This document shows positions 9,842-61,719 of a stretch of DNA of 64,000 bases, in pieces. The notes beneath the pieces are model-generated. The model saw only the letters and a list, made by a program, of their open reading frames with translations, did not search any database and was not told where the DNA came from. The stretch spans positions 206,395-270,394 of the forward strand of contig CAVQDI010000002.1 of NCBI GenBank assembly GCA_963711235.1, read 5' to 3'. Both the position numbers and the translations under genes were made by a program. Numbering within the stretch: position 1 is the first letter of the stretch; each line of letters starts with the position of its first letter. Source of the DNA: an uncultured beta proteobacterium. Its GTDB lineage: Bacteria > Pseudomonadota > Gammaproteobacteria > Burkholderiales > Casimicrobiaceae.

Positions 9842-9855
9842 TTTTTTCTCACGAA

Positions 9856-17818: not shown

Positions 17819-17975
17819 TGCTATCCAGCCCGCTGGAATTCCTGTCCGTTATTGCTGCCCCCCCTGCGCGCATCAATCATCTTGATCGCGCTTACCCGGG
17901 ATCCGAAACTGAGCGTCGACCTTGGGAGACCGTTCATGAGGCATATCGTTAAGGTGTCACTCGTTGGAGGCTAAC

Positions 17976-18548: not shown

Positions 18549-18670
18549 TTGAATACCGCGAAGGCCCGGAAGAACGATGCTGACGGGCGGTTGGTCCTAG
18601 CCATACGTCTTTTCAGAGCGGGACGGAAGGCTCTTCTTTGGGGAATTCGTTGCACTCAAGAGGAAACGAC

Positions 18671-19294: not shown

Positions 19295-19499
19295 GCCCCG
19301 TGATACGATCATCGACGGGCTTGCGGATCGACGGTCGCAATCGCGAGCGCATTGAAATGATGAAAGTGGTTGTCGTAATGTTAGGACATTGCTGCGACTG
19401 CGGCCATTTGACCTGACAAATCTTCGGGCAAGAGGACACTAGTTCGCGATATCTTGTTCCCCGCGGCGATTCCTCGCCCCCCTTTAGAGTCAGAAAATC

Positions 19500-20696: not shown

Positions 20697-20731
20697 CCGG
20701 GCGATTCAGGGATCGGCTGCTACAGGGCTGG

Positions 20732-21163
20732 TCACAGGCGGCCAGCATCCTTTGCTTCGAGGATGGCAGCCTGAAGCGCTCTCTTGACCTTCTGGTCCTT
20801 GATGTTGAGCACGCCGCGCTTGGGATGCTCGCCAAAACGTCGGTTTGGCGAGGCTGCGAACCATTCGGTGTCGAACGACAGCCGCACCGTGTTGCCGAGA
20901 TCGAATTTCGTGTCGCGGTCGAGCCCCGCCTTCTGGTCTGCCGCGCGGATTGTAAACTCGCCAGCGTAGCGCTTCTCGACGCCCTGCGACGTTCCATAGG
21001 CAACCCGCACAATCGAGGCTTCTTTGCGCTCCGGGTCCTCTTCGACCTCCACGACAAGTGCGGGCCTGTCCTTTGGCCCAGGTACCCCGACTTCGCCTTC
21101 CGGAAACCGGCACTGAACAATGTCACCGGCCTTCGGTCTTGGCGCCCAAGGGCGCGGGCTCAT
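20732..21163 (-). CDS. PemK/MazF-like toxin-fold protein
   Basis: PKAGDIVQCRFPEGE...KDRPALVVEV follows the PemK pattern (GD-I-x-x-x-FP...RPalVv). Overlaps the upstream small gene by 4 nt. Confidence 0.5.
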   Translation of the reverse strand: MSPRPWAPRPKAGDIVQCRFPEGEVGVPGPKDRPALVVEVEEDPERKEASIVRVAYGTSQGVEKRYAGEFTIRAADQKAGLDRDTKFDLGNTVRLSFDTEWFAASPNRRFGEHPKRGVLNIKDQKVKRALQAAILEAKDAGRL

Positions 21164-21435
21164 TTCAGCAGGCTGCTCAGGGTCCGGCCCTTGCGCTTCG
21201 GCTCGTGCCTGCGGATCGCGGCGAGCTGCGCCTTGGTCAGCGGCGGATAGCCTTCTTCGGATTCGCCGCGCAGGGCATCCTCGCGTAGTCTGGCAAGCGC
21301 GAAGTGCACAGCCTGGGTTTCGGAAAATCCAAGAGCCTTGGCGATCCTGCGCATGGTCACACGGCTAACTGTGGTCAGCGTGTCAACCTTGAAGTTGAGC
21401 AATAACGCCTCTTTCCTCGTTGCATTGTTGGTCAT
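21160..21435 (-). CDS. Putative antitoxin partner of the PemK-like protein
   Basis: 91-aa ORF whose stop overlaps the toxin start (ATGA). No recognisable domain by eye. Confidence 0.4.
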   Translation of the reverse strand: MTNNATRKEALLLNFKVDTLTTVSRVTMRRIAKALGFSETQAVHFALARLREDALRGESEEGYPPLTKAQLAAIRRHEPKRKGRTLSSLLK

Positions 21436-21578
21436 GGAGTCGATGCCGTGGTTGTCATATATAAAAAGTATATATGAAAGCTGGCACGAGTTTCAAGGAC
21501 AAGATCGCCATTTTTCCTGGCACCCACGAAGCCGGACCTTCTGGGGCCGTGGCAAATCCGGCAATGCCGGTCGACATG

Positions 21579-21621
21579 CTGCGCGACTTTTGAAACCGGG
21601 GTGCGCGACTATTGCGCGACT
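21579..21621 (+). promoter_or_regulatory. Arm-type repeat array (3 x TGCGCGACT), right end of island 1
   Basis: Copies start at 21579, 21601 and 21612. The 22/11-nt spacing and orientation are identical to 9799-9841. Confidence 0.6.
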
Positions 21622-21714
21622 TTTCGCGTGAAGGATGTGGAACCATAGGGGCGAAAACTAGCGCGCCGGGCGTTCGCCACTAATTAAATCAATTGCTTAG
21701 AAGCCTTAAATCGC

Positions 21715-21761
21715 GCTACGAACCAGGGGGTCGTGGGTTCAAATCCTGCCGGGCGCGCCAA
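21715..21761 (+). repeat. att core copy 2 (47-nt duplicate of the tRNA-Arg 3' half)
   Basis: Exact match to 9732-9778; there is no 5' half of a tRNA upstream. Confidence 0.9.
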
Positions 21762-21819
21762 AAAATCAAGGGCTTGCAGAAACGCGGGCCCTTTTCTTTT
21801 CCGGCGTTGCGTGACTTTT

Positions 21820-22023
21820 TCACGCAACTGCCCGCAGAAGTGTCATCGCTGGCGTGCTTCGGGTGGCATTGATTCGGTTCACCGCCTCCAGGAGCTCGGC
21901 AATTTCCGCGGCCGAGTAGTGCGTGGTTACGCTCCCGTTGTGGTGTCCCAGCAAAACCTGCCGCGTCTCAAAGCTCACTCCGGCCGCTCGCAGTCGACGG
22001 CCGAACGTATGCTTCAAGTCGAC
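21820..22023 (-). pseudogene. C-terminal fragment of a tyrosine integrase (paralogue of int at 9856-10989)
   Basis: VDLKHTFGRRLRAAGVSFETRQVLLGHHNGSVTTHYSAAEIAELLEAVNRI aligns with the last ~69 residues of the island-1 integrase. Upstream residues are unrelated. Confidence 0.7.
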
Positions 22024-22024
22024 A

Positions 22025-22180
22025 CTCGCCAGTGGGCGCTTCGCAATGCTCGACGACGGCATGGGATTCAGCCTCGTGCCTTGGGCGCCAGTCATTGACA
22101 ACCGACTTGGTCAGTCGATCGCGGCCGTGATGCGTGGTGGCAGCGCCCATTGGGAGATTGGCAAGCAATTATCTCGATAG
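22025..22180 (+). pseudogene. C-terminal fragment of a DUF3363-type protein
   Basis: LASGRFAMLDDGMGFSLVPWAPVIDNRLGQSIAAVMRGGSAHWEIG parallels 11445-11603 of island 1. It abuts the integrase fragment at about 22024. Confidence 0.55.
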
Positions 22181-22468
22181 GGGAATCGCTGTCAGTCCAA
22201 GGCCCACGCAGCATGGCATGTCGCGCAAGCGAAGTACCGAGCCCATACTGAGAAAACGCAGCCATCCTCAATTCGGCCGAGTTCGAACAGCAGACGGTCA
22301 GCTTGGTCATCCAAATTAATCGCATGCAGTCGTTCGCATCGCTTGCTTAACGATTGCTGCCAAGAAAGCTTCTTACTTGACTTCGATTCTTGGGACAGTA
22401 AAATGCCGTGCCCGAGCGCCGAATGGCTTCTGCGGGAAGCGCAGCAAGAAGCTCGATCTCGATCAGTT

Positions 22469-23974
22469 ATGGAGAGAACCGTGAACTTCAGAATACTTCT
22501 ACGGGTAGTGTGCCTTGCGGTCCTGGCGGCAGTCCTGATTGGTTGCCAGAAGACGGACACCGCTGTCGAAAAGGCGGCGACTGACGTAAAGGACAAGGCT
22601 GTCGCGGATGCGAAGGCAGCCGAGGCGCTTGTGAAGGAGAAGGAGGCGCAGGACACCGGCATCGAAGCCTACATCTATGCCTATCCGTTGGTCACTATGG
22701 AGCTGACGCGGCGCGTGTCGACCAACGTAGCGGCGCCCGAGGGCAGCAAGGCGCCGATGGGCCAGCTCGCCAAGCTGCGCGGGTATCCGGCGGTTGATGA
22801 CCATACGGTGACCGCGCCGAATGCGGATACGCTCTACACCGTCGCGTGGCTCGATGTGTCCAAGGAGCCTTGGATTGTCAGCGCGCCCGACATGAACGGG
22901 CGCTTCTTCCTGCTGCCGATGCTGGACGGCTGGACGACGGTATTCGCCGATCCCGGCAAGCGCACCACGGGTACTGGCGCGCAGAAGTTCGCCATCACCG
23001 GCCCGGGTTGGACGGGACCACTTCCGGCGGGGGTCAAGGAGTACAAGTCGCCGACAGGCATAGTGTGGCTGCTTGGCCGCCTCTATTGCACTGGCACGCC
23101 AGAGGACTACAAGGCGGTGCACGCGCTGCAGGACAAGATGACGGTCGTGCCGCTGTCCGCGTACGGCAAATCCTATGCGCCGACGCCGGGAACCGTCGAT
23201 CCAGGCGTCGACATGAAGACGTCAATCCGCGACCAGGTTAACGCGATGGACGCCGCGTCATATTTCAAGCTGTTCGCAGAGCTGCTCAAGACTAATCCCC
23301 CGGTCGCCGAGGACGCGCCGATGGTGGCAACGCTTGCCAAGATCGGGATAGTGCCCGGCCAGGACTTCGATGTGTCCAAGATAGACCCAGCTGTCGCTAA
23401 GGGCCTTGCGGGCGTTCCCAAGCCCGCACAGGACAAGATCATAGTTTGGCTGAAGGAGGGGATCGTTGCCGGCGACCTGAAAATCACCGACGGCTGGTTC
23501 TTCTCGACCAAGGTAGGTATCTATGGCACCGCCTATCGTATGCGGGCACTGGCCACATGGATCGGGCTCGGCGCAAATCGTCCGCAGGATGCGGTCTACC
23601 CCACCTCCGAAGGGCCGGACATTGTCAAGAAGTACAGCGGCGCGAATAAGTATGTCATGCACTTCAACAAAGGTGAGTTGCCACCGGTCAACGGCTTCTG
23701 GTCGCTGACGATGTATGACGCCAACTACTTCTTCGTGCCGAATCCGATCAACCGTTACACGGTGAGCCAGCGCAACAAGCTCAAAGCTAACCCGGACGGA
23801 TCGGTCGATATCTACGTCCAGAACGAATCCCCCGGCAAGGGCAAGGAACAGAACTGGCTGCCGGCGCCGAAGGACCAGTTCATTCTCATGATGCGCCTGT
23901 ACTGGCCCAAGGAAAGGCCGCCATCCATTCTCGATGGCAGCTGGAAGGTTCCGCAGGTCAAAGAGGTCAGCTGA
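22469..23974 (+). CDS. DUF1254/DUF1214 domain lipoprotein
   Basis: ATG at 22469. Lipobox LIGC. IEAYIYAYPLVTMELTRR...NADTLYTVAWLDVSKEPWIVSAPDMNGRFFLLPMLDGWT (DUF1254) and C-terminal MMRLYWPKERPPSILDGSWKVPQVKEV (DUF1214). Confidence 0.8.
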   Translation: MERTVNFRILLRVVCLAVLAAVLIGCQKTDTAVEKAATDVKDKAVADAKAAEALVKEKEAQDTGIEAYIYAYPLVTMELTRRVSTNVAAPEGSKAPMGQLAKLRGYPAVDDHTVTAPNADTLYTVAWLDVSKEPWIVSAPDMNGRFFLLPMLDGWTTVFADPGKRTTGTGAQKFAITGPGWTGPLPAGVKEYKSPTGIVWLLGRLYCTGTPEDYKAVHALQDKMTVVPLSAYGKSYAPTPGTVDPGVDMKTSIRDQVNAMDAASYFKLFAELLKTNPPVAEDAPMVATLAKIGIVPGQDFDVSKIDPAVAKGLAGVPKPAQDKIIVWLKEGIVAGDLKITDGWFFSTKVGIYGTAYRMRALATWIGLGANRPQDAVYPTSEGPDIVKKYSGANKYVMHFNKGELPPVNGFWSLTMYDANYFFVPNPINRYTVSQRNKLKANPDGSVDIYVQNESPGKGKEQNWLPAPKDQFILMMRLYWPKERPPSILDGSWKVPQVKEVS

Positions 23975-24061
23975 AAGCGACGGCCTGAGACGGGGAAGCG
24001 GCGATCAGTCGAATGCGGGCGTCGTGTTTTCTTGTGCCAATGAGAATTGGAAGATCCGACC

Positions 24062-24877
24062 ATGAAGCGTATCCGACCAATTGGCTATGCCCTAAGCGTA
24101 GCGGTGACGCTCGCTGGCGCATCGCTACCAGCGCGCGCCGACCTAAGTGCGGAAGAACTCGCCAAGCTGGCACAGAATCCGGTCGCCAACCTGATCAGCG
24201 TGCCGTTTCAGTACAACGCCAACCTCAACTACGGGCCAGAGAAGGACACGCAGAGCATTCTCAATATCCAACCGGTCATTCCGTTCGAATTGAACAAGGA
24301 CTGGAACCTGATCACGCGTACCATCCTCCCGGTCATCTGGCAGCCGGGACTCGCGCCCGGCGACAGCAGCACCAGCGGCATTGGTGGAACGCAGTTTTCG
24401 GCGTTCTTTTCGCCGTCCAATGCCGAGGGCACGATCTGGGGTGCTGGACCGATTGCACAAATCCCAACGACAACGAACACCAAGCTTGGCTCCGATCGCT
24501 GGGGACTTGGGCCAACGTTTGTCGTCCTGAGGCTGGAAAAGGGCGACCCATGGGTTTACGGTTTCCTTGTCAACAATGTCTGGTCCGTCGGCAGCGGCGC
24601 CGGCGGCTCCTACAACAGTTTCCTGCTGCAGCCGTTCGTGAACTATAACTTCGAGGGCGGCACCTATCTTTCTTCGGCGCCGATCCTGACCGCCAATTGG
24701 AAGGCCAGCGGCAGCAACGTGTGGACGGTGCCGCTCGGGATCGCCCTGGGGCACATCTTCCACCTGGGCAAGCTTCCCGTGAACGCGCAGATCGGCAGCT
24801 ATTACAACGTGGTCAAGCCCGACTTTGGCTCGAACTGGCAGATTCGCGCGCAGGTTCAGCTGATGTTTCCGAAGTAG
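24062..24877 (+). CDS. Outer-membrane beta-barrel protein (MetA-pathway/phenol-degradation-like transporter family)
   Basis: ATG at 24062. Signal peptide ending ARA. NPVANLISVPFQYN motif, alternating beta-strand pattern, and a C-terminal QVQLMFPK. Confidence 0.55.
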   Translation: MKRIRPIGYALSVAVTLAGASLPARADLSAEELAKLAQNPVANLISVPFQYNANLNYGPEKDTQSILNIQPVIPFELNKDWNLITRTILPVIWQPGLAPGDSSTSGIGGTQFSAFFSPSNAEGTIWGAGPIAQIPTTTNTKLGSDRWGLGPTFVVLRLEKGDPWVYGFLVNNVWSVGSGAGGSYNSFLLQPFVNYNFEGGTYLSSAPILTANWKASGSNVWTVPLGIALGHIFHLGKLPVNAQIGSYYNVVKPDFGSNWQIRAQVQLMFPK

Positions 24878-25022
24878 TCTGGTTAAAGCAATAGACGCGG
24901 CGACAACGGTTAGCTGACACGGACTGCAGCGTTTGAGCTTCTGCTTCCACAATATCGAACGTAGCTTTTGGAGGCTCGACGGACCGCTTTGGGCCGCACC
25001 AGCCGATGATGAGCGTAATGCG

Positions 25023-25043
25023 GTGCGTGACTTTTGCGTGACT
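25023..25043 (+). promoter_or_regulatory. Arm-type repeats (2 x TGCGTGACTTT), right end of island 2
   Basis: Copies lie 11 nt apart. A related single copy at 21807-21816 lies at the left end. Confidence 0.45.
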
Positions 25044-25134
25044 TTGGTGTGCGTCAATGGACTCTCGTATACAAATTCAGTGGAGCGATCAGCCGCAAGT
25101 CGTTGATTAATGAAAGCCGCTGGTATCTACAAAA

Positions 25135-25181
25135 GGCTACGAACCAGGGGGTCGTGGGTTCAAATCCTGCCGGGCGCGCCA
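25135..25181 (+). repeat. att core copy 3 (duplicate of the tRNA-Arg 3' half)
   Basis: Exact match to 9732-9778 minus the last base, plus one extra 5' base of the tRNA. Confidence 0.9.
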
Positions 25182-32861: not shown

Positions 32862-33185
32862 TCAGGCCTTCTTGACCCAGGCATTACACCAGCCGTTGGC
32901 GCTGACCAGCTTGCCTCCGAACGCGCTGCATGGACCATTGGCGGCGCCCGGTTGTCCCGAATACAAGGCGCAGTTTGAGCACGTCGCGGTCTTGTCCTTG
33001 CGGTTGGCTGCCTTGGTGGCGTCGATCTTGTAGCCCAGCGCCGTGGCCGTCGGATCCGATTCGCTTAGGGTGTCGACCGCCTCGGCTGCCCCGCTGAACA
33101 GCGCAGCCGCGAGTGGTGCGGCAGCGAGACCGGCGACACCGATCTTGATGAAGCGTCGGCGGTTTGACGACATGTGCGTGGTCAT
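32862..33185 (-). CDS. High-potential iron-sulfur protein (HiPIP), Tat-exported
   Basis: ATG at 33185 with GAGGAG upstream. Tat signal (NRRRFIK). Four Cys in the HiPIP pattern (CSNCALY...GPCSAFGGKLVSANGWCNAW). Confidence 0.85.
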   Translation of the reverse strand: MTTHMSSNRRRFIKIGVAGLAAAPLAAALFSGAAEAVDTLSESDPTATALGYKIDATKAANRKDKTATCSNCALYSGQPGAANGPCSAFGGKLVSANGWCNAWVKKA

Positions 33186-33527
33186 GGTGATCTCCTCGGG
33201 TTGGCGATGCGTGTGCCGGTCAGCAGCAGCATCTTGGCAATAGCTGGCGTGTTTGTCGAGCACCGGCCTGGGCATTGGGGCAGGATTCCACGAGGCCGAA
33301 CTTGACCCGCAGTATCGCTTGATGCGGAGGAGAGGCACCCAGACTATCGAGAACTGCCTGCTCAGCCTAAAGGGAGATGGGTGAACTGGAACGCCAAGCG
33401 TTGAGTCGCATGCTGTAAGCGATCTGCCGGCCTCGACATTGGGCGCAGCTCGTGCTGTTCAGCGCCGGCTTTTGGACTTACACTAGACATCCCCTAGTAA
33501 GGCGCGCCTTCGCTGCTTGCCTGCCTG

Positions 33528-34295
33528 ATGACGATCCCTGCCCGCGACCCACTGCCGGCTGCCGCGACGCCGCCGGCCGTGATTTCGATCCGCGACCTGA
33601 GGACATACTGCAGCAACTGCAGCATGCGGCAGTTATGTCTGCCCGTGGGGCTCGATCCGGACCTGTTGCAGGAACTCGACCGCCTGGTTAAGAACCGAGT
33701 GCGGCTCAAGAAGGGGGACGCGCTTTACCGCGCGGGAGATACTTTCTCGGCGCTCTACGCAATTCGCATGGGCTCGTGCAAAACGACGGTGCTGTCCGAG
33801 GACGGCCGCGAGCAGGTGGCGGGCTACCACATGCAGGGCGATGTGCTCGGCATGGACGGCATCGGCACAGAGCGCTATGGTTGTGAGGCAGTTGCGCTGG
33901 AAGACACCGAATGTTGCGTCTTGCCTTTTGGGGAACTCGAGAATCTCACGCACAGCGCCGCGCCTCTGCAACATAACCTGTACCAGTTTCTGTCGCGGGA
34001 GATCGCGCGTGGCCAAAACACAATGCTGCTGCTGGGCAACATGCGGGCCGAAGAACGGCTGGCTGCATTTCTGCTCAACCTGTCGCAGCGCTATCGGGAG
34101 CGTGGCTACTCGTCGACCGAATTCGTGCTGCGCATGTCCCGGCAGGAGATTGGCAGCTATATCGGCATGAAGCTCGAAACAGTGAGCCGGCTGTTTTCCC
34201 GCTTTCAGCAGGAGGGCCTGATCCAGGTCCAGGGCCGCTCCGTCAAACTGCTCGACATTACGACCCTCAAGCAACTCCTTGGCCAGCGCTGCTAG
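33528..34295 (+). CDS. fnr: FNR-type oxygen-sensing Crp/Fnr transcription regulator
   Basis: N-terminal Cys cluster CSNCSMRQLC plus a central Cys. cNMP-like fold. DNA-recognition helix LETVSRLFSRF carries the E--SR signature that reads TTGAT half-sites. Confidence 0.85.
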   Translation: MTIPARDPLPAAATPPAVISIRDLRTYCSNCSMRQLCLPVGLDPDLLQELDRLVKNRVRLKKGDALYRAGDTFSALYAIRMGSCKTTVLSEDGREQVAGYHMQGDVLGMDGIGTERYGCEAVALEDTECCVLPFGELENLTHSAAPLQHNLYQFLSREIARGQNTMLLLGNMRAEERLAAFLLNLSQRYRERGYSSTEFVLRMSRQEIGSYIGMKLETVSRLFSRFQQEGLIQVQGRSVKLLDITTLKQLLGQRC

Positions 34296-34547
34296 CCGCC
34301 TGCAGCCGTCGCGGAAGCGGCGAGGTTTACCATCAACTGTCTCATCCGCAGGCGCGGGCATCGTGGTCGTGCCGTTCTTCGGTGTCACGCCTCCTCAGCG
34401 GACTGCCGAGAGAATAGCCGTCAAGGTACGGATGCCCTGAGCACGGCACCCCAGTGACCAGTATAAACGCAAGCGGTCTTACCAGCTTGCGCGACAGGCC
34501 GATTCAACCCATGGGCGATTGCGGGGCCTGCCTTGAATGGACCCGGT

Positions 34548-34561
34548 TTGATCTAGATCAG
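34548..34561. promoter_or_regulatory. FNR-type box TTGATCTAGATCAG
   Basis: 9/10 match to TTGAT-N4-ATCAA, about 120 nt upstream of the Cyc2-like gene. Confidence 0.55.
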
Positions 34562-34680
34562 GAATGCCACAGTGAAACGCAATTACCGTACGCGGGTCAC
34601 ACGTCGGCTTTGCGCCGGCCCCAAGGGAGATGGCAACCCAACCGGGCTTGCGCGGCCAAGCCAAAAGAAGGAGTGCTGCG

Positions 34681-36129
34681 ATGGATTGCCGAGGTGCAAG
34701 AATAATAGCGAGATCGGCCGGCCTCACACTGCTGGCAGCGACGTTCGCGCTGCTGCTGTTTCTGGCGCTGCTCAGCCCGGCGCAGGCAGTTCCGGCCTTT
34801 GCGCGACAGACCGGGCAAGAGTGCGTTGCCTGTCACGTCAGCTTTCCCGAGCTCACGCCGTACGGTCGCTATTTCAAGCTGACCGGCTACACCATCGGCA
34901 AGACCTTTTTTTCGTCGGAAGGCTTCAACTATGTGCCGATAGCGGTCATGGCGCAGGCATCCATCACCAATATCCAGAACAATAACCAGACGGATCCCAC
35001 CACCGGCCAGACGACGACGCTGGTCCCGCGCAACAACGGCCTGGTGTTCTGCTGTACGAGTGTGTTCTTCGCCACCAAGTTCACCGACTGGTTCGGCATG
35101 ATGGGCCAGTGGACCTACAACAACCTGGCGACGTCGGCCGACGGCACGCTCGGTGGCCACTCCAGCATGGACAACACCGACCTTCGCGCCACCTACAAGT
35201 ACAGCAGTGTGGGTGCGGCGGAGCCGGACTGGATCTTCGGGGCGACGATCAACAACAACCCGACGGTGCAGGACGTCTGGAACAGCACCCCGGCATGGGG
35301 CTTCCCGTACACAGCTGCTCCGCTCGCGATTACTCCGTCGGCCAAGGCGCAGATCTACAACTCGCTGGCGCAACAGGTTGCCGGCCTGGGCGCCTACGCC
35401 TTCTGGCAGAAGACCATCTACGCTGAGGTTTCCTTCTATCGCACCGCCAACGGCGCGTTCTCCGTCTTAAGCGAGGGGCTGCCCGTGGGCATCGATGGCG
35501 GGGTGGCCGCGCTCAAAGGCTACAACCCCTACTGGCGTCTCGCCTACAACAAGGAATGGGGTCCGAACTCGCTGATGGTCGGCACCTATGGGATGTTCCT
35601 GGACCGTTATCCGGACAACCTGATGCAGTCGACCCCGACGGACCGCTACAAGGACGCTGCCGTCGATGCGCAATACCAGTACATCACCGATCCGCACACC
35701 TTTACGGCGCAGCTTAACTACGTCTACGAAAAGCAGAACTACAACGCGAGCTATCCATCTGTCGTAGCGACCGGCGCAGGCATCGGCGCCGGGCCCGCAC
35801 CGGCGAATCCTAGCGATACGCTGCGCCAGTTCCTGGGCAAGGCGACCTATTACTACAATCGGCAGTATGGCGGGACCATCGCATATTTCTCGACAACCGG
35901 CAGTTCGGACAGCGGGCTGTACGGAACCGACGCCAACGGCAATCCGAATACGCCGAACAGCAACGGCTTCATCTTCGAGCTCGATTACCTGCCGATTCAG
36001 AATATCCGGATCATGTTCCAGTACACCGCATACAACAAGTTCGACGGGGCGTCGACCAATTACGACGGCAACGGCCGCAACGCGCACGACAACAACACCG
36101 CGTTCTTCAACGTATGGGTGGCGTTTTGA
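34681..36129 (+). CDS. Fused monohaem cytochrome c - outer-membrane beta-barrel (Cyc2-like cytochrome-porin)
   Basis: ATG at 34681 after AAGGAG. Signal peptide ending AQA. A single CVACH about 12 residues after the cleavage site. About 430 residues of Tyr/Gly/Asn-rich alternating strands, ending in the OMP beta-signal FFNVWVAF. Confidence 0.6.
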   Translation: MDCRGARIIARSAGLTLLAATFALLLFLALLSPAQAVPAFARQTGQECVACHVSFPELTPYGRYFKLTGYTIGKTFFSSEGFNYVPIAVMAQASITNIQNNNQTDPTTGQTTTLVPRNNGLVFCCTSVFFATKFTDWFGMMGQWTYNNLATSADGTLGGHSSMDNTDLRATYKYSSVGAAEPDWIFGATINNNPTVQDVWNSTPAWGFPYTAAPLAITPSAKAQIYNSLAQQVAGLGAYAFWQKTIYAEVSFYRTANGAFSVLSEGLPVGIDGGVAALKGYNPYWRLAYNKEWGPNSLMVGTYGMFLDRYPDNLMQSTPTDRYKDAAVDAQYQYITDPHTFTAQLNYVYEKQNYNASYPSVVATGAGIGAGPAPANPSDTLRQFLGKATYYYNRQYGGTIAYFSTTGSSDSGLYGTDANGNPNTPNSNGFIFELDYLPIQNIRIMFQYTAYNKFDGASTNYDGNGRNAHDNNTAFFNVWVAF

Positions 36130-36202
36130 GCGGACATGAAGCAGCCGCTTCGACGCGGCGCGGCCGGCTCGTCACCGCCATGACCAATTGGGAGACTGGG
36201 CT

Positions 36203-36826
36203 ATGAAGCGCACCACACACGTGACACTCGCGGCAATGCTCCTGACGGGCACGTTTACCGCAGCAGATGCCCAGGACAACGCGGCGGTGGTTCAGAAGGC
36301 GGCGGAGGAGAAGGCCGTCAATCTCTGCTCGACCTGCCATGGGCCACGCGGGATCAGCACTTCTCCGGAATTCCCGATCCTCGCCGCCCAGCGCCAGGGC
36401 TATCTGGTGGCGCAGATCAACGCCTTCCGGCACAAGACCCGGAGCGAGAAAGACGCCCACGATTTCATGTGGGGGATCGCAGGCAATCTCGACGAGTCGA
36501 TCATTGAAGGCATCGCGGCGTATTACGCCGCCCAGCCGCCGGCCCCGGGCCACAGTGATGACCCGGCGCTCGTCGCCAAGGGCAAGGAGTTCTTCGACAA
36601 GGGTGTCCCGGAGCGCGGAATCCCGGCCTGCCAGGTCTGCCACGGCCCCGATGCGTTGGGCAAGGCGGACTTTCCGCGCCTCGCGGGCCAGCATGCCAAG
36701 TACATCGTCAAGCAGCTCAATTACATCCAGGCGCTGGTTCGGGCTGCGCCGGTGATGCACGGTATCGTCAAGGATCTCACTCCAGACGAAATCCAGGCTG
36801 TTGCGGCCTACGTGCAATCGAAATAG
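36203..36826 (+). CDS. Dihaem cytochrome c4-type protein
   Basis: ATG at 36203 after GGAGA. Signal peptide. Two CxxCH motifs (CSTCH, CQVCH), each followed by a Met-containing distal region (FMWG, VMHG). Confidence 0.8.
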   Translation: MKRTTHVTLAAMLLTGTFTAADAQDNAAVVQKAAEEKAVNLCSTCHGPRGISTSPEFPILAAQRQGYLVAQINAFRHKTRSEKDAHDFMWGIAGNLDESIIEGIAAYYAAQPPAPGHSDDPALVAKGKEFFDKGVPERGIPACQVCHGPDALGKADFPRLAGQHAKYIVKQLNYIQALVRAAPVMHGIVKDLTPDEIQAVAAYVQSK

Positions 36827-36829: not shown

Positions 36830-37090
36830 GCTCTCTGCACTGGTGGACCGGCTGCAGCTTGGCTGGCCGTTTGTGTTGGACCGGCGAGCATCGTCGCTGG
36901 CCGCCGGATTGCGAAGCGTAGGGAGTCGAAGAATCGAGCTTCGGGCCAATATGGCTGGTCATCTCCTTCCGCGACATGCGTAGCACGAATTCAGTCGGCG
37001 CGTAGCCGCGCTCGTGATACCGCGACCAATGCCACCAATTCAATGCCGACATGGTAGCCAAACAGAAAGAGTTCATGAGACCAAAACAGC
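36830..37090 (-). pseudogene. Fragment of a second fnr-like gene
   Basis: RYHERGYAPTEFVLRMSRKEMTSHIGPKLD parallels RYRERGYSSTEFVLRMSRQEIGSYIGMKLE of the intact Fnr. Flanking residues are out of frame or unrelated. Confidence 0.5.
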
Positions 37091-37209: not shown

Positions 37210-37779
37210 CTAGCGCGTGACCGCCTTCGCCGTTCGCGCCTTGCGCGCGATCTGGCGACGGAGCGCGGCATACCTTTCCTCCCCGTTTTCGCCGAACAAG
37301 GGGTCGTCGACGTGCCGTATTGCGGCATCAATCGAAGCCCAGTCCCCGCTGCGCAAAAGCTTGGCTGCCAGAGGAAGCATCGCAGTTTCCTCCGTCTGCA
37401 TATGCTTGCGGAAATCCGCGACGTAGGCCCGGCCGGGCGTCTCGACATGCTCGCGCGACGTGATCGACCCGTTGACGATGTCGTCCAGAGCGCGGACCAA
37501 CGCGTTTCCGTCTTCCTTCAGACGTGCGTGCTGCTCGCTCAGTTCGTCGACGATTGGACGGGCGTTGACCGCGCGCTCCTTGATCCTTGCAAACGCCAGA
37601 TCCTCCTTGGGATGATGCGACACGTCGGGGTAATGCGTCATGTAGAACATGATGTCCAGCATCAATTCGTAGTCGGGCGACTCGCCCTTGTGAAAGAGGT
37701 CGAACTGACCGTCCAGAAGGTCGAGTAACGTCGCGAAATTGACGTGTTCCGTGTGCCAGAGGGCGATGGAGTCGGACAT
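37210..37779 (-). CDS. Hemerythrin-like (HHE cation-binding) domain protein
   Basis: WHTEHVNFATLLDLL..., HHPKEDLAF, and HMQTEETAMLPLA. Paralogous to 44108-44695. Confidence 0.75.
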   Translation of the reverse strand: MSDSIALWHTEHVNFATLLDLLDGQFDLFHKGESPDYELMLDIMFYMTHYPDVSHHPKEDLAFARIKERAVNARPIVDELSEQHARLKEDGNALVRALDDIVNGSITSREHVETPGRAYVADFRKHMQTEETAMLPLAAKLLRSGDWASIDAAIRHVDDPLFGENGEERYAALRRQIARKARTAKAVTR

Positions 37780-38341: not shown

Positions 38342-38830
38342 CAGTCTACCGTAGGGTTCCAGAAATACGCGCTTTTCCCGCGGTTGACGGTTGAGCAGGG
38401 TATCGCCTTGTGTCTAGAGATGAAGAAAGTGCCTAAGACGGCGCGGCACGAAATTGTCGCCCGCCACGTCGCGTTCGTGGGATTGCTGGGCTTCGAGCGA
38501 CGCTATCCGCATCAGCTCTCCGCCGCGACGAAACAGCGGGTGTCCATCGCCCGTGCGCTGACAGTTGATTGGCGGTACTGCTAATGGACGAGCCGTTCGC
38601 CGTGCGCGATGCGCAGAACCGCGCCCGCGTGCAGGGGGAGATGGGGCGGCTTGCTGGCCACCGGCGATCCTCAGCTGCGCAAAACAATGGTGCTTGTCAC
38701 GCACAGCATCGAGAAGGCGATGCTGCTGTCCAATCGGTCGTCGTCCCGACCCGACGGCCAAGTCGGGTCAAGGCCAACATCCAGATCGACCTGCCGCGAC
38801 TACGGCGGGAAACCGAAGCAAGCTACTAGC
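38342..38830 (+). pseudogene. ABC transporter ATP-binding protein (nitrate/sulfonate/taurine type), multiply frameshifted and lacking its N-terminus
   Basis: Family sequence alternates between two frames: FQKYALFPRLTVEQ...YPHQLSAATKQRVSIARAL, then LLMDEPFAVRDAQNR, then TMVLVTHSIEKAMLLSNR, then VVVPTRRPSRV...IDLPRLR. Confidence 0.65.
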
Positions 38831-38930
38831 CGCTCCGTTCACGCGGGCTGCCTCCGCTCGACGGTAACTGGCCATGAAAAAAAGCCGTTCTATTTGCCGC
38901 AAATCAATACGCCTCGCTAGCACTTGTTGT

Positions 38931-38944
38931 TTGATTGCAATCGA
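38931..38944. promoter_or_regulatory. FNR-type box TTGATTGCAATCGA
   Basis: 9/10 match to consensus. A weaker one (TTGCCGCAAATCAA) lies at 38894-38907. About 300 nt upstream of the CBS gene. Confidence 0.35.
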
Positions 38945-40188: not shown

Positions 40189-41955
40189 GTGGTTGATGTT
40201 CTTACAACTCGTGAACGCGGAGCACTGACTGGTATGAGGCGTAGCGTCACGACGACCTCGCCGCCCCGCCAACTCAAGGCGGTTACCGTTGCTGCGCTCC
40301 GTACATTGGCGACCCGCTTCGGCGGCGCGGACGATGCCCGTCGCTTCGCGCTGCTGCGCGCGGCCGCAGCTGCAGCGCTTGGCGATATGAAGGTACTGCT
40401 CGCCTATCACGATGTGCTGCTCTTCCTTCTGGCATATCCAGCCACGGCGGCGATGCGTTCACTCGCGGCTCTCGAGCTCACCCGGGTCGCTGCGGTGGCG
40501 CGATACATCGACGCGCACGGTCCCGCGCGGGCACGCGCTGGGCTGCGTGGCAGCGGCATCGCGTGGTCGGCAATCAGCATCGCCTACGGCTATCCGATCG
40601 CCCGTTGGCTGGTGTCCCGCTTTCCGAGATGTGTCGATATCGATTCGTTCGGTGAGCGCGGCGCGCTCCTCGCGGAATGGTTGCGCCCTGGTTTACCTCC
40701 GGCCGAATTCGAGCTCCTCGCGTCCGGCGAGGAATCGCCGGAGGCGCTGCTCGACGCCGGCACGACAGGATGGCGCGGCAGTCGGCTTTCCTGGCTGGTC
40801 GCGCAATTCGAGCGCCTGCCATGTGATCCCGCGTTGCGCGAGTCGCTCTACGACAGCCTCGAACTGTTCGTCTTGCTGAACCCGCGCGACGCGCCGATCT
40901 CACGCACGTTCGTGCGCGGATTGCCTGCCCAAGCGTTCTATCATCGCGGCCCGCTCTTGCGCAGCGTCGATGCCGATCGGCTGATCGCGGCTGCCCTGCC
41001 TCGGGCACGCCGCCTTGGGCGTGGCGCCTGCCAGCATCTGGTCGATGCCGGACGTGGCGTTCTGGCGGTACTCGGTCGTGAGACCGATCCGATCGCCCAT
41101 GCTGACGTTGCGCGGACGCGCCACTACCGCCTTGGGCGCGGTGTCGACATAGCGCTGTATTCGGCTATCCCTGCGCAACGCAGCGCACTCGATTCGCATA
41201 TCGGCTACGTGTTGTTCAAGAACAGTGTCCCGATCGGCTACGGCGGCGGTTGGCCGTTCCTCGGCACCTGCAAGATCGGCATCAACATCTTTGCGCCGTT
41301 TCGAAACGGCGAGTCCGCGTTTCTGATGGCCTCCGTCCTGCGCGTGTACGCCCAGCTGTTCGCGGTGGAGCGGTTTGTCGTGGAACCCTATCAATTCGGC
41401 GCCGGCAACCGTGAGGGCCTTGAATCAGGCGCCTTCTGGTTCTACTTTCGTTTGGGCTTCCGGCCCGTCAAACCCGCGCTGCGCGTGGTCGCGCTGGAGG
41501 AATTCGAGCGAATGAAGCGAAATCCGGGGTACCGCACGCCGTTGTCTGTCCTGCGGCGCTTCGCCCGCTCCGATCTCGAGCGGCCCGTAGTCTGTGGCGC
41601 TCGCGACGCCTGCGATCCGGCTGCGCTGAGTCAGGCGGTGACGACGTGGATAGCGTCACGGTTCCATGGGCGGCGCGATCGCGCGGAAACGGCAGCGCTG
41701 CGTCGCGTGGCTGCGGCGCTGGGGTTAGCGGATGCCGGTGCCTGGAACGACGACGAGCGCAGGGCGTTGCGCGCCATGGCGCCGGTCCTTGCTCAGATCA
41801 AAGACCTTCGCGCGTGGGCTGCGCCGGACAAGCGCCGCCTGGTCGCGCTGATCCGCGCTAAGGGCGGCAACGAGTACCGCCATTTCGCGTTGATGGCGGA
41901 TTTCGCGCGTCTGCGCAACGGATTGAACGTAGTCGCCGAAAACTCAGCGCCGTAA
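40189..41955 (+). CDS. Large hypothetical protein with a GNAT-like core in its second half
   Basis: Long uninterrupted ORF with coding-like composition. GYVLFKNSVPIGYGGGWPF...FVVEPYQFGAGNREGLESGAFWFYFRLGFRP resembles an acetyltransferase-fold segment. Start uncertain (GTG at 40189 or ATG at 40234). Confidence 0.55.
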   Translation: MVDVLTTRERGALTGMRRSVTTTSPPRQLKAVTVAALRTLATRFGGADDARRFALLRAAAAAALGDMKVLLAYHDVLLFLLAYPATAAMRSLAALELTRVAAVARYIDAHGPARARAGLRGSGIAWSAISIAYGYPIARWLVSRFPRCVDIDSFGERGALLAEWLRPGLPPAEFELLASGEESPEALLDAGTTGWRGSRLSWLVAQFERLPCDPALRESLYDSLELFVLLNPRDAPISRTFVRGLPAQAFYHRGPLLRSVDADRLIAAALPRARRLGRGACQHLVDAGRGVLAVLGRETDPIAHADVARTRHYRLGRGVDIALYSAIPAQRSALDSHIGYVLFKNSVPIGYGGGWPFLGTCKIGINIFAPFRNGESAFLMASVLRVYAQLFAVERFVVEPYQFGAGNREGLESGAFWFYFRLGFRPVKPALRVVALEEFERMKRNPGYRTPLSVLRRFARSDLERPVVCGARDACDPAALSQAVTTWIASRFHGRRDRAETAALRRVAAALGLADAGAWNDDERRALRAMAPVLAQIKDLRAWAAPDKRRLVALIRAKGGNEYRHFALMADFARLRNGLNVVAENSAP

Positions 41956-42561: not shown

Positions 42562-42575
42562 TTGATCTAGCTCAA
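42562..42575. promoter_or_regulatory. FNR-type box TTGATCTAGCTCAA
   Basis: 9/10 match, 35-48 nt upstream of the hemN start codon. Confidence 0.5.
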
Positions 42576-44063: not shown

Positions 44064-44107
44064 GTCCGGAGCCCTGGCGTCGCGGATGCATGTGGGAAGG
44101 GACAGCT

Positions 44108-44695
44108 ATGCAGTCACTTCGCATCATCAAAGACGAACATCGCTCGCTGGCAGCGGTCTTGCACGGCATGCTTTACTTGGTTCACGAGATCCGCGACCGG
44201 GGCGCCAAGCCAAATTTTGCCTTGCTTGGGGCGATGATCTATTACATCGACACGGTTCCGGAACGATTCCACCACCCCAAGGAGGATCAGTACCTGTTTT
44301 GGCTATTGCGCATTCGCCACCCGGATGCGGCGCCGCTGCTTGACCGGCTGAAGTCGGAGCACCAGGCGGGCGCCGAAAGGATACGCACGCTGGAGCAGGC
44401 CTTGATGCGGTACCAGCACGGCGGCGCGGCCGAATTCTTCAACTTCATGGCGGCGGTGGAAGCCTATGCAGCCTTCCACTGGGATCACATGCAAACCGAG
44501 GAAAATGACGTCCTGCCGCTGGCAGAGAAGCATCTCACCGTCGGCGATTGGCAAGCGATCGATGCGGCATTTCTCGGTCACACCGATCCGATGGTCGGCG
44601 TCGACGCAGGAGTCAAGTACGACACGCTGTTCCGTCGCATCGTCAACCTGGCGCCGCCGCCGATCGGCGTGGGACCCGCGAGCGAGCGCGAGTGA
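44108..44695 (+). CDS. Hemerythrin-like domain protein
   Basis: ATG at 44108. IKDEHRSLAAVLHG, FHHPKEDQYLF, and HMQTEENDVLPLAEK. Confidence 0.75.
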   Translation: MQSLRIIKDEHRSLAAVLHGMLYLVHEIRDRGAKPNFALLGAMIYYIDTVPERFHHPKEDQYLFWLLRIRHPDAAPLLDRLKSEHQAGAERIRTLEQALMRYQHGGAAEFFNFMAAVEAYAAFHWDHMQTEENDVLPLAEKHLTVGDWQAIDAAFLGHTDPMVGVDAGVKYDTLFRRIVNLAPPPIGVGPASERE

Positions 44696-46228: not shown

Positions 46229-46242
46229 TTGATGTAACTCAA
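46229..46242. promoter_or_regulatory. FNR-type box TTGATGTAACTCAA
   Basis: 9/10 match in the divergent SDR/dsbB intergenic region, 67 nt from the SDR start. Confidence 0.4.
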
Positions 46243-47114: not shown

Positions 47115-47444
47115 TCAGTAACCCGACGACCCCTGAAATGCCACCGGCCTGTCCGGCACCGGAAAACGGTAGTAGAGATCGTTCAGATAGCGGGTGACAG
47201 CGAGGATGTCCTCGTCGCTCCAGGCGAGGCCCGTGTTCATCTGCCATCGAAATACTTGCTTCCTGAGACTTGCCCAGTCTGTCGCCAGCCTCTTGTCGCG
47301 CCAATGCACCTGTGCGCTATGGCAACCGATGCAATGGGTGGAATAGAGGAGCTCGCCGCGGGAGCTGTCCGGCGCTGGCTGGGCCGCAACCGCAATTGCG
47401 CCAGCGGTGCAGGCGGCCATTAGCCCCAATGTCAGTCGTCGCAT
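47115..47444 (-). CDS. Small monohaem c-type cytochrome, secreted
   Basis: Signal peptide MRRLTLGLMAACTAGAIAVAA. A single CIGCH. Last gene of the minus-strand string. Confidence 0.75.
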   Translation of the reverse strand: MRRLTLGLMAACTAGAIAVAAQPAPDSSRGELLYSTHCIGCHSAQVHWRDKRLATDWASLRKQVFRWQMNTGLAWSDEDILAVTRYLNDLYYRFPVPDRPVAFQGSSGY

Positions 47445-47543
47445 CGCAACCGATCAGCGGCCTCCCGGGCCCGCGACAGCTTCGCTACGACGGGTAAGTA
47501 TTCCATCACGGCAGCTTGAGTATTGGGGTTTCTGGCGCGGGGG

Positions 47544-48506
47544 TCAACCGTCGTTCTTAACCATCGGCCATGTCTCATTGGCGTGCTTCAGCAGCGCAGG
47601 ATTGCTGCGGCAGCGGGTGATGAATTCGCGCACCTCCGGCGCATGCCAGGCGTCGCGATAGGCCCGCCACGCATCCTCGAGCGAATCGCGGCGCAGGTCG
47701 GCGGCGGCGAAAGGGAGCGCATTGAGCAGCTTGACCTTGCCGTTGGGCACGACCAGGAGCATCGCCTGCGGTCGCTCGAGCCGCGTTTCCATCTCCGCAA
47801 GAATGTCCCAAGGATAGATCAAAAGGGCCATTCCGGGGCCGATCGACGCGGCGCGTTCTCTCAGCGCGGTAACCGCGGCGCGCCACTCCTCGCTGCTGCA
47901 TGCAATGCGCTGCCAGGCGCCAGCGGCGCGGCCGATGCGCATGAGCGGGCCGGTCACGAATGCGCTGCAGCCGAGCGTTGCCGCCAGATCGAACGCGGCG
48001 ACAATCTCGTGCAGATTAAAGCGGGTGGGAACGAACACCAATTGCGGTGCAAGACCGCGCGCGACCAATCGCTCGATGGCGGCGACCGCCGCGGCGAAGC
48101 TCGATCCCGGTCGCACGCGTTCATGCGTCGCCGCCGTCGCTCCATCGACCGAAATCTGGATGCATTCGACGCCGAGCGCCGAGAGCCGATCGGCCGCGGA
48201 ATCGTCGATGTGGCTGCCGTCGGTCTCGATCTTGAGCGCGATGCCGGCCGCGCCGAGCAGCTCCAGCAGATCCCAGCAATGCGGTACACCCAGCGGCTCG
48301 CCACCACCGAAGGCAACGTAGGCGACGCCGAACGCCGCGATGCGACGCGCAAGGTCGATCGCTTCGTCACGGGGAAGCTCATCGTGCCATGCCTTATCGG
48401 GACCGGACTCCTCGCAGCAGGTGATGCAGCGCGCGGCGCAGCGGTTGGTCAGCTGCCAGGCAAGAAAAAGGGGCGCCCGGTAGTCTTCGACCGAGCGCCC
48501 CGGCAT
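47544..48506 (-). CDS. Radical SAM enzyme, PqqE-like core, paralogue 3
   Basis: LFLAWQLTNRCAARCITCC (CxxxCxxC), GGGEP, and IETDG. The C-terminal part is homologous to a SPASM/twitch region (VVPNGKVKLLNALPFAAADLRRDSLEDAW) but has no auxiliary-cluster cysteines. Confidence 0.85.
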   Translation of the reverse strand: MPGRSVEDYRAPLFLAWQLTNRCAARCITCCEESGPDKAWHDELPRDEAIDLARRIAAFGVAYVAFGGGEPLGVPHCWDLLELLGAAGIALKIETDGSHIDDSAADRLSALGVECIQISVDGATAATHERVRPGSSFAAAVAAIERLVARGLAPQLVFVPTRFNLHEIVAAFDLAATLGCSAFVTGPLMRIGRAAGAWQRIACSSEEWRAAVTALRERAASIGPGMALLIYPWDILAEMETRLERPQAMLLVVPNGKVKLLNALPFAAADLRRDSLEDAWRAYRDAWHAPEVREFITRCRSNPALLKHANETWPMVKNDG

Positions 48507-48525
48507 TGCGGAAGTTTTAGGTATT

Positions 48526-48681
48526 TCAGGTGAAGCGGATGTACGGCTGAGCCATCACCTGCTCGGAAATGTCCTCGAGCTTGGGCGTTTCCCACGCGAG
48601 CTTTTGCGCCGGCTGCACCGTATCGGTCTTGCGTTCATCGCCGGTCTTAGCGGCTTCGATCGTCAGGTTCATCTCGCTCAT
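48526..48681 (-). CDS. 51-aa PqqA-like candidate precursor peptide (not in the ORF track)
   Basis: ATG at 48681 with GGAGGG 4-9 nt upstream; stop TGA at 48526-48528. Lies 10 nt after the stop of the upstream rSAM gene and 19 nt before the start of the next. Translation: MSEMNLTIEAAKTGDERKTDTVQPAQKLAWETPKLEDISEQVMAQPYIRFT. Confidence 0.6.
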   Translation of the reverse strand: MSEMNLTIEAAKTGDERKTDTVQPAQKLAWETPKLEDISEQVMAQPYIRFT

Positions 48682-48691
48682 TTTCCCTCCG

Positions 48692-49654
48692 TCAGGTCAC
48701 ACCCGGGACCACGGACAACAACTGCCAACTGTTGGCTTGCGCGTGACGCGAGGGGTCGGCGACCGCGCGCTCTGCTGCCATTAGCACTGTATCACTTCGC
48801 CAGGCGTTGCGGTAGGCCTCCCAGGCCTCCATTAGTGTATGGCGGCGCAAGTCAGCACAGATCTGCGGCAGCGCGGCGGCGACCTTGACCCAGCCGTTGG
48901 GTAGCACGAGCAGGGTTGCCGGCGGCGTTTGGAGACTGCCGCGCAGGCCTTCCTCGAGATCGAACGGAAGATGGCATAACTCCAATTGACCCTCCAGGAG
49001 CCGGCCCATGCGTCGCAACAGGCGGCGAAACGCCCGGTACTGCGCATCGGTGGGCTCGAGCTTGTCCCACAGCCGTGCGGCAGTGCCGATGCGCATAAGC
49101 CGCCCGGTATTGACGCGGAAGGCACCAAGCGCCCGTGCCCGCTCGATGACCGGCCCAGCCTCGTGAATGTTGAGCCGGGTCGGCGCAAAGGTGATCTCGA
49201 GCGGCAGCCCGGCCGCGCGAGCGGCACGGCAGGCCGCATGGGCTTTGGCGAGCGACGCGCCTGGCCGCTGGCCCTCGTAGACCTGCTGCGTGTCGCCGTC
49301 GAGGCTGATCTGCATCGAGCGGATGGGCAGGCGGGCGAGCCGAGCGGCGAGTTCGGCATCGAAGCGCTGCCCGTTGGTCTCGATCTTGAGCTGAACGCCC
49401 GCCCGCCCGAGTGCCTCGGCCAAGGCAACGAAGTGAGGCACCACCAAAGGTTCACCGCCACACAGCATCACATAGGGCACTTCGTTGCGGGCAATCTCAT
49501 CGGCCAGCCGCAGCGCCTCGCCGACGTCGAGTTCATCCCGCAGCCGCTTGCCTGGCGCCGACTCGGTACAGCAATGCAGGCAGCACAGGTCGCAGTCCCG
49601 CGTGATTTGCCACGAGACGAACAGCGGCGCGCATAGCTGATCGATTCGGTTCAT
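48692..49654 (-). CDS. Radical SAM enzyme, PqqE-like core, paralogue 2
   Basis: LFVSWQITRDCDLCCLHCC, CGGEP, and IETNG. C-terminal LVLPNGWVKVAAALPQICADLRRHTLMEAW. The start ATG overlaps the stop of the prenyltransferase gene (ATGA). Confidence 0.85.
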   Translation of the reverse strand: MNRIDQLCAPLFVSWQITRDCDLCCLHCCTESAPGKRLRDELDVGEALRLADEIARNEVPYVMLCGGEPLVVPHFVALAEALGRAGVQLKIETNGQRFDAELAARLARLPIRSMQISLDGDTQQVYEGQRPGASLAKAHAACRAARAAGLPLEITFAPTRLNIHEAGPVIERARALGAFRVNTGRLMRIGTAARLWDKLEPTDAQYRAFRRLLRRMGRLLEGQLELCHLPFDLEEGLRGSLQTPPATLLVLPNGWVKVAAALPQICADLRRHTLMEAWEAYRNAWRSDTVLMAAERAVADPSRHAQANSWQLLSVVPGVT

Positions 49655-51587: not shown

Positions 51588-51591
51588 GCCC

Positions 51592-61707: not shown

Positions 61708-61719
61708 CAGCATCGATCC

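Follow-up and report, generated by a model that had tools for sequence, protein, structure and literature searches.

We analysed a window of 64,000 nucleotides (the whole stretch of contig CAVQDI010000002.1 considered here) from an uncultured betaproteobacterium, with a focus on two adjacent genes that encode a Cyc2-family cytochrome-porin and a dihaem cytochrome c4. The gene pair and its flanking signals are laid out as follows.

34548..34561, forward strand: predicted FNR box TTGATCTAGATCAG, matching 9 of 10 positions of TTGAT-N4-ATCAA (it reads TTGAT-N4-ATCAG)
34681..36129, forward strand: Cyc2-family fused monohaem cytochrome-porin, 482 aa, recognised from the open reading frame (ORF) map, motifs and homology
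36203..36826, forward strand: periplasmic dihaem cytochrome c4, Cyc1 homologue, 207 aa (Pfam Cytochrom_C)
36848..36876, forward strand: hairpin resembling a terminator, its tail containing T residues, 3' of c4 (consensus scan, weak evidence only)

The Cyc2-like ORF runs from an ATG at 34681 to a stop codon at 36127-36129 and is preceded by the ribosome-binding site AAGGAG (34667-34672), 8 nt from the start. Residues 1-36 (34681-34788) form a predicted Sec-type signal peptide, deduced from the letters as MDCRGARIIARSAG-LTLLAATFALLLFLALL-SPAQA followed by VP; its n-region is basic and its core hydrophobic, and at the AQA site signal peptidase is predicted to cut between A36 and V37. The family motif AVPAFARQT (A36-T44, 34786-34812) leads through GQE into CVACH (residues 48-52, 34822-34836), the only CxxCH of the protein, 12 residues past the signal-peptidase site. 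VSF and PEL (34846-34854) follow in that order, and the C terminus is FFNVWVAF (36103-36126). The ATG of the c4 gene at 36203 lies 73 nt past the Cyc2-like stop. Its product carries a Sec signal and two haem motifs, CSTCH (36326-36340) and CQVCH (36629-36643), and its top match in the PDB is 1H1O (E 1e-32), above other c4 structures. It has all the hallmarks of a Cyc1-type dihaem c4, namely two CXXCH domains, a signal and homology to Cyc1. The hairpin at 36848..36876 is probably the end of a bicistronic operon.

A first-pass annotation of the same DNA had described these elements from the letters, and its description held at each position: a signal peptide and exactly one CxxCH (CVACH) just past the cleavage site, a C-terminal FFNVWVAF in the 482-aa translation of 34681-36129, a dihaem c4 gene 73 nt downstream with its two CxxCH motifs, a 9/10 FNR box about 120 nt before the gene, at 34548-34561, and a Tat-exported HiPIP (high-potential iron-sulfur protein) as well as an intact fnr upstream, both of which are present according to profile scores and motifs.

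The Cyc2 family has been defined by a signal peptide, a length of at least 365 aa, one CXXCH and a 16-strand porin, together with AXPXFAR[Q/K][T/Y] before the haem site and PXL four residues after CXXCH (Keffer et al. 2021; PMC8406198). All the published sequence features are found in the 482-aa protein (length, CVACH, AVPAFARQT, PEL and signal). No Pfam or NCBIfam model matched it, and a PDB sequence search with it returned chance matches only. The first-pass annotation had called the protein Cyc2-type and had proposed that a lack of similarity to Cyc2 would overturn the call. Taking BLASTP E ≤ 1e-5 as the threshold, we found similarity to the Cyc2 of the Acidithiobacillus rus operon (E 3e-46) and to Zetaproteobacterial Cyc2 (E 3e-11 by BLASTP, 4e-14 by hhalign). 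Because it combines the family features with homology to both the rus-operon and the Zetaproteobacterial proteins, the window protein is, judged by sequence, a member of the Cyc2 family.

Relatives of this protein are numerous. A word-indexed search returned more than 7,475, and a profile search at E ≤ 1e-3 gave 3,628 clusters at 50% identity. Among the best 150, every full-length representative has a single CxxCH, and most have A-x-P-x-F-A-R-Q-T-G or a near variant ahead of it. The names attached to ten distant cluster representatives gave no useful information. All full-length relatives that we compared end in a hydrophobic or aromatic C terminus resembling FFNVWVAF. An alignment of 45 sequences has a mean column identity of 76% with many invariant columns. 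The AlphaFold2 model built from 45 homologues contains 16 long strands over residues 87-481, with strand pLDDT (predicted local distance difference test) values mostly of 70-86. Foldseek matched this model with probability 1.0 to the 16-strand porins DcaP, OmpF, OprP (2O4V) and OprO (4RJW), at target-normalised TM (template modelling) scores of 0.45-0.62. OprP and OprO were also the templates used for modelling Cyc2PV-1 (PMC8406198). The earlier suggestion of a beta-barrel porin agrees with both the strand count of about 16 and the fold match. The haem of the window protein would be covalently attached, and the protein would presumably reside in the outer membrane.

To reach the reference proteins of the rus operon, we followed the 1H1O sequence, which we take to be A. 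ferrooxidans cytochrome c4, the cyc1 product, to Cyc1 and from there to the encoding contigs. The closest matches to the 1H1O sequence are Acidithiobacillus cytochromes, and three Acidithiobacillus contigs (L088-L090) carry the whole rus operon; in L089 the order is cyc2 (485 aa), cyc1, an ORF, coxB, coxA and, further on, rusticyanin. Between the 485-aa Cyc2 and the window protein, the alignment covers the full length, signal peptide included, at 31% identity (E 3e-46). Both share the motif A-x-P-x-FARQTG-x2-C-x2-CH-x3-P-x-LTP-x-GR-x-FKL, and in the haem region of the rus-operon protein, ALPSFARQTGWSCAACH, the spacing from motif to haem equals that of the window protein. Cyc1 is 39% identical to the window c4 (E 5e-47). 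The gene order is the same in both, so that the resemblance to the head of the rus operon noted in the first-pass annotation extends to homology of both proteins in order.

The likeness ends with the pair. The rus operon continues after cyc1 with cup, coxBACD and rusticyanin, whereas the window has an fnr relic and a hemerythrin gene. Among the Pfam-scanned window ORFs, cup, coxBACD and rusticyanin are missing 3' of c4, 80 related loci (described below) show no conserved neighbour beyond c4, and we rejected the window locus as a rus operon. The region upstream of Acidithiobacillus cyc2 has no FNR box, unlike that in the window. The hosts also differ, since the rus operon belongs to an acidophile and the window to a neutrophilic soil betaproteobacterium, probably Casimicrobiaceae-like. 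A match on an A. ferrooxidans plasmid (H14) was rejected as a rus-operon gene; its score equals that of an Acidiphilium plasmid copy.

Zetaproteobacterial Cyc2 genes were recovered by scanning metagenome contigs with the degenerate back-translation of a Cyc2PV-1 haem peptide taken from a published mass-spectrometry table (PMC8406198). The recovered genes are of the Zetaproteobacterial type, and one is near PV-1 across several other published peptides; a 60-aa query assembled from published Cyc2PV-1 peptides found no candidate. Cyc2PV-1 of Mariprofundus ferrooxydans (Cluster 1) resembles the window protein in its signal peptide, single haem, family motif and 16-strand OprO/OprP-like porin. The hhalign match between Zetaproteobacterial Cyc2 and the window family is confined to about 114 N-terminal columns and has a probability of 98.2% (E 4e-14), and by BLASTP the N-terminal domain of a close Cyc2PV-1 relative is 51% identical to the window protein over 39 residues. 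The Cluster 1 barrel, however, could not be aligned with the window barrel by sequence, and the spacing after CH differs by one residue. Similarity between Cyc2 clusters has been described as N-terminal only (PMC5566968). Cluster 1 hosts are obligate lithoautotrophs and neutrophilic iron oxidisers. The window Cyc2 most likely belongs to Cluster 3, because it is 31% identical to Acidithiobacillus Cyc2 and because a published sequence network links Acidithiobacillus Cyc2 to homologues from Rhodanobacteraceae and Burkholderiales (PMC10654088). Identities among Cluster 3 proteins are 26-35% (PMC8406198, Fig. S7).

Like Cyc2, PioABC and MtoAB combine an outer-membrane porin with a cytochrome and take electrons from Fe(II). 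PioC of PioABC is a HiPIP, and the window also has a neighbouring HiPIP. The MtoAB, PioAB and MtrAB complexes consist of a separate 26-strand porin and a decahaem cytochrome (PMC8406198), whereas the window protein is one polypeptide with one haem and about 16 strands. We rejected an assignment to these complexes on the basis of this fused monohaem architecture.

We compared the locus with 80 related loci obtained by scanning one genome per species, and with additional plasmid and chromid records. The hosts of the 80 loci are mainly soil betaproteobacterial metagenome-assembled genomes (MAGs) of the Casimicrobiaceae, and also Rhodanobacteraceae, including isolates of Dyella and Rhodanobacter. 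The window Cyc2 is 90% identical to an intact protein in the closest relative (L001). Its identity is 49-57% with proteins of the Rhodanobacteraceae, Dyella and Rhodanobacter included, and about 50% with those on plasmid or chromid records of Caballeronia and Ralstonia solanacearum. A c4 gene lies directly 3' of the Cyc2-like gene in all 80 loci, which cover Beta- and Gammaproteobacteria. Other neighbours recur far less often:

response regulator near the Cyc2-like gene: 12 of 80 loci
fnr homologue within 6 kb of the pair: 9 of 80 loci
hemerythrin near the pair: 8 of 80 loci
HiPIP beside the pair: 4 of 80 loci

No conserved neighbour beyond c4 was found among the 80 loci. Because c4 accompanies the Cyc2-like gene in 80/80 loci, as against 9/80 for fnr and 4/80 for HiPIP, the conserved unit is two genes, cyc2-like then cyc1-like, and not four. 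The first-pass annotation had proposed a HiPIP-fnr-Cyc2-c4 module. Its cyc2-c4 half stands, HiPIP and fnr are lineage-specific, and a conserved four-gene module was rejected on synteny.

We also weighed the idea that cyc2 and c4 have no function and are merely degenerating or silent leftovers in a region that has been rearranged. Relics do flank the pair, in the form of an fnr fragment (36930-37052) and broken ABC-ATPase-like ORFs at about 38384-38920 (read by eye). Against this, neither ORF is broken; they have signal peptides and haem sites, a ribosome-binding site is present, and third-position GC is high (0.80-0.81). The 90% identity to the intact L001 homologue and the strong column conservation of the 45-sequence alignment argue in the same direction, and we consider loss of function highly improbable.

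Homologues of Cyc2 have been described in Burkholderia, Ralstonia, the Xanthomonas group, Rhodanobacter and Bradyrhizobium (PMC8406198; PMC10654088; PMC5566968). They are known to be abundant among Burkholderiales and Rhodanobacteraceae for which iron oxidation is not known. The window protein sits in this Cyc2 clade of organisms not known as iron oxidisers (Rhodanobacteraceae, Burkholderiales, Ralstonia, Bradyrhizobium and others). Our literature searches brought up no account of a conserved FNR box or a strict pairing of cyc2 with c4 in this clade. The window locus is one more member of a family already known to be large; the new details are modest, namely strict pairing with c4 and conservation of the FNR box.

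The FNR box ends 120 nt before the Cyc2-like ATG, with its centre 126.5 nt upstream. The window holds four such boxes against 0.97 expected, a number reached in 1 of 100 shuffles and thus weakly significant alone. Comparison with the related loci was more telling. A box with at most one mismatch occurs within 400 nt upstream of the mature N terminus in 43 of 79 loci, at a median box-centre position of -196. These upstream regions contain 49 boxes in 31.6 kb, compared to 48 in the other 914.5 kb of the same loci, a 30-fold enrichment. Low-oxygen control is therefore predicted to be a conserved feature. The inner four bases and the exact positions of the box vary and the pattern spans two proteobacterial classes, so that it does not reflect simple inheritance of one sequence. 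The pair is apparently induced at low oxygen via FNR, an idea of the first-pass annotation that the comparative data strengthen as a prediction. A scan for sigma-70 consensus promoters found none, which is expected for an activator-dependent promoter and was given no weight.

Box-to-start distances resemble those of Fnr-dependent promoters shown experimentally in the betaproteobacterium Herbaspirillum seropedicae, where Fnr activates c-type cytochromes, c4 among them; c4 cytochromes are proposed donors of cbb3 oxidases (PMC3759049). None of the top-ranked full-text literature results linked Cyc2 with FNR or Anr. The nearest precedent is pioABC, which under anoxia is controlled by the FNR-family regulator FixK (PMC3050613; PMC10654088).

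We think it fairly likely that this FNR-controlled two-gene operon forms a Cyc2-type conduit leading from outer membrane to periplasm, with Fe(II) oxidation as the expected reaction. As oxygen falls, [4Fe-4S]-FNR, encoded just upstream, would bind TTGAT-N4-ATCAG about 126 nt before the start and activate transcription. The 482-aa product would be exported by Sec, receive one haem c at CVACH and insert into the outer membrane as a barrel of about 16 strands, with its small N-terminal haem domain at the periplasmic mouth. Soluble Fe(II) in the pore would be oxidised by the haem, and the electron would pass to the periplasmic dihaem c4, possibly on to the neighbouring Tat-exported HiPIP, and then to a high-affinity terminal oxidase or denitrification enzymes encoded elsewhere. 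Oxidation of Fe(II) is expected because of the homology with characterised Cyc2 proteins, and for each phylogenetic cluster the Cyc2 of one representative has been identified by functional work as an iron oxidase (PMC8406198). The anaerobic functions encoded nearby and the placement of the other three FNR boxes of the window between called ORFs (both described below) also fit the proposed operon. We infer the direction of electron flow and the downstream acceptors; the benefit to the cell would be energy gain or Fe(II) detoxification.

Several observations weigh against this reading. No terminal oxidase, rusticyanin, bc1 or alternative complex III (ACIII), or carbon-fixation genes are linked to the pair among the Pfam-scanned window ORFs or the neighbours in the 80 loci. 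The adjacency of HiPIP and fnr is not conserved, even in the closest relative, and 36 of 79 loci have no box at one mismatch or fewer. Soil MAGs and heterotrophs (Dyella, Rhodanobacter, Ralstonia, Caballeronia) that are not known iron oxidisers make up most of the relatives, and the literature calls Cyc2 function in bacteria of this kind untested (PMC5566968; PMC12442345). Confidence in the AlphaFold2 model is moderate (pLDDT 61.9; predicted TM score, pTM, 0.66), and its haem domain is poorly modelled, although a poor fit is expected with the cofactor absent. Finally, activation by FNR is equally compatible with a role in electron export.

Such export is the main rival. Cyc2 and c4 would then run outward, as an FNR-induced anoxic outlet that passes electrons of the periplasmic cytochrome pool to Fe(III) in soluble or chelated form, to humics or to further acceptors outside the cell. 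It would serve redox balancing or anaerobic survival and not Fe(II) oxidation. The conserved FNR control itself, meaning induction without oxygen, speaks for it, as do the mostly heterotrophic hosts and the anaerobic or fermentative functions encoded nearby in the window (hemN, a fumarate-reductase-type flavoprotein and a 2-oxoacid:ferredoxin oxidoreductase). The general properties of the carriers do not, since c4 cytochromes and HiPIPs have high midpoint potentials, which suit transfer from Fe(II) to an oxidase and make them poor donors to Fe(III) minerals. The literature leaves room for other extracellular electron-transfer roles of Cyc2 in organisms that do not oxidise iron (PMC5566968), but all functionally characterised Cyc2 proteins are Fe(II) oxidases, and a single haem behind a narrow pore would be unable to contact solid acceptors (PMC8406198). 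On balance, we regard an outward direction as unlikely.

A further rival is that the role of the pair has nothing to do with iron respiration. Homology might reflect shared architecture only, and the protein could, for example, be a porin induced by hypoxia with a haem that senses or oxidises some other small reductant, be it Mn(II), Cu(I), sulfide or a reduced organic compound, or it could have a protective function in the periplasm. The very large family (3,628 clusters at 50% identity), the many carrier organisms never observed oxidising iron, the lack of linked iron-specific genes in the 80 neighbourhoods and the many Cyc2-bearing taxa that are sulfur oxidisers (PMC12442345) would fit this. 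On the other side, the strict association with a Cyc1-type c4 (80/80 loci) points to electrons being delivered to the respiratory cytochrome pool, the haem-domain motif is shared with proven iron oxidases, and a HiPIP is repeatedly found next to the pair, a situation also known from the Bradyrhizobium Cyc2 cluster and from PioABC. We judge a role unrelated to iron respiration improbable, and Fe(II) oxidation through the Cyc2-c4 conduit is the reading we prefer.

Cyc2 is the main candidate marker gene of bacterial iron oxidation, yet most homologues are in bacteria never shown to oxidise iron. The comparative result, strict c4 pairing and a usual FNR box, is more useful than one added Cyc2 member. 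Tentatively, and with some doubt, we propose that FNR-box-preceded cyc2-cyc1 is a hypoxia-specific conduit for extracellular electrons in widespread heterotrophs and denitrifiers of soil and rhizosphere (Casimicrobiaceae, Rhodanobacteraceae, Ralstonia, Caballeronia), used for enzymatic Fe(II) oxidation with trace oxygen or nitrate or as a reversible iron redox outlet. If this were true, much soil Fe(II) oxidation would be carried out by organisms not counted among iron oxidisers, and the long-disputed enzymatic basis of nitrate-dependent Fe(II) oxidation would become genetically testable in tractable isolates. A concrete prediction is FNR-dependent induction at low oxygen, which can be tested in the cultivable Dyella, Rhodanobacter and Ralstonia. 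A caution also follows: Cyc2 matches in soil metagenomes need not all stand for lithotrophic iron oxidation.

The genes adjoining the pair are listed below.

32862..33185, reverse strand: HiPIP, 107 aa (Pfam HIPIP 8.6e-21)
33528..34295, forward strand: fnr, oxygen-sensing activator of the Crp/Fnr family, 255 aa (NCBIfam NF008365 and Pfam)
36930..37052, reverse strand: remnant (41 codons) of a second fnr, with 54% identity to residues 178-218 of Fnr (tblastn)
37210..37779, reverse strand: hemerythrin-domain protein, 189 aa (Pfam Hemerythrin 2e-09)

The HiPIP has a Tat motif (NRRRFIK) and the cluster cysteines C69, C72, C86 and C100 that mark the family, and its top PDB matches are the HiPIPs 1HPI and 1HLQ. 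It is divergent to the pair and lies beyond fnr, outside the cyc2-c4 operon. In all four related loci with a HiPIP, it is near the pair and on the same strand; that of L014 is 70% identical to the window HiPIP and 66 nt upstream. A cyc2 of Bradyrhizobium is likewise clustered with HiPIP and Cyc1/CycA1 homologues (PMC5566968). A functional but optional link of HiPIP to cyc2-c4 is plausible, and in the window the protein is possibly a periplasmic electron carrier that is accessory and not part of the conserved unit. In a Pseudolysobacter MAG (L059, 4982-5684), the HiPIP gene lies upstream of cyc2 and is equipped with two separate FNR-type boxes, while a perfect box precedes cyc2; HiPIP may be co-regulated with cyc2-c4 in that lineage. 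No FNR box with two or fewer mismatches was found upstream of either HiPIP or fnr in the window.

The fnr product scores 232.9 bits against NF008365 (Fnr; cut-off 228), matches Pfam cNMP_binding, HTH_Crp_2 and Crp, and has the cysteines expected of FNR (C28-x2-C31-x5-C37 and a central C119). L005, L048 and L063 each have an intact fnr 3' of c4, encoded on the opposite strand. Together with the relic at 36930..37052, this layout suggests an older cyc2-c4-fnr arrangement.

The other three boxes of the window (38931-38944, 42562-42575 and 46229-46242) have one mismatch each, and all lie between called ORFs. The first precedes a CBS-domain gene (39163), the second is immediately 5' of hemN (42610), and the third has an SDR gene on one side and dsbB on the other. 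HemN is encoded by a classic FNR target. The three boxes and fnr suggest a local cluster of putative FNR-regulon genes. A second hemerythrin gene (44090-44695, forward strand) lies directly 3' of hemN, and its product is 34% identical to that of 37210-37779. The two hemerythrins may be oxygen-, NO- or iron-sensing accessory proteins.

Upstream of the cyc2 region, the 3' 47 nt of a tRNA-Arg(ACG) gene (9700-9777) recur as exact copies in two places, 21715-21761 and 25135-25181. The tRNA is adjoined by a gene for a tyrosine integrase (9856-10989, reverse strand), and an integrase fragment (21820-22101) follows the second repeat. The region 9700-25181 looks like two tandem genomic islands at tRNA-Arg, with a cargo that includes a PAS histidine kinase, a sulfatase and a DUF1254/DUF1214 protein. 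An origin of the cyc2 module in these islands was rejected because the att repeats end at 25181, 7.7 kb to its left.

Downstream, short overlapping ORFs in different frames at 38384-38920 contain motifs that by eye resemble ABC-transporter ATPases (for example QLSAATKQRVSIARAL and LVTHSIEKAMLLSNR) and are probably a frameshifted pseudogene. A 588-aa ORF without a Pfam family (40189-41955, forward strand) shows a good coding signal, with a third-position GC of 0.74. On the reverse strand, the region 47115-51897 holds three radical-SAM genes (47544-48506, 48692-49654 and 50586-51587), a small ORF (51592-51897) and the gene of a 109-aa protein (47115-47444) that contains a single CxxCH and matches no Pfam family. 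The group may serve peptide maturation or be a cofactor cluster. Further on, the region 55793-63348 encodes a fumarate-reductase/succinate-dehydrogenase flavoprotein, a cytochrome b subunit, a 2-oxoacid:ferredoxin oxidoreductase (POR_N, TPP_enzyme_C) and an Fe-S flavoprotein, a gene content that fits a facultatively anaerobic lifestyle.

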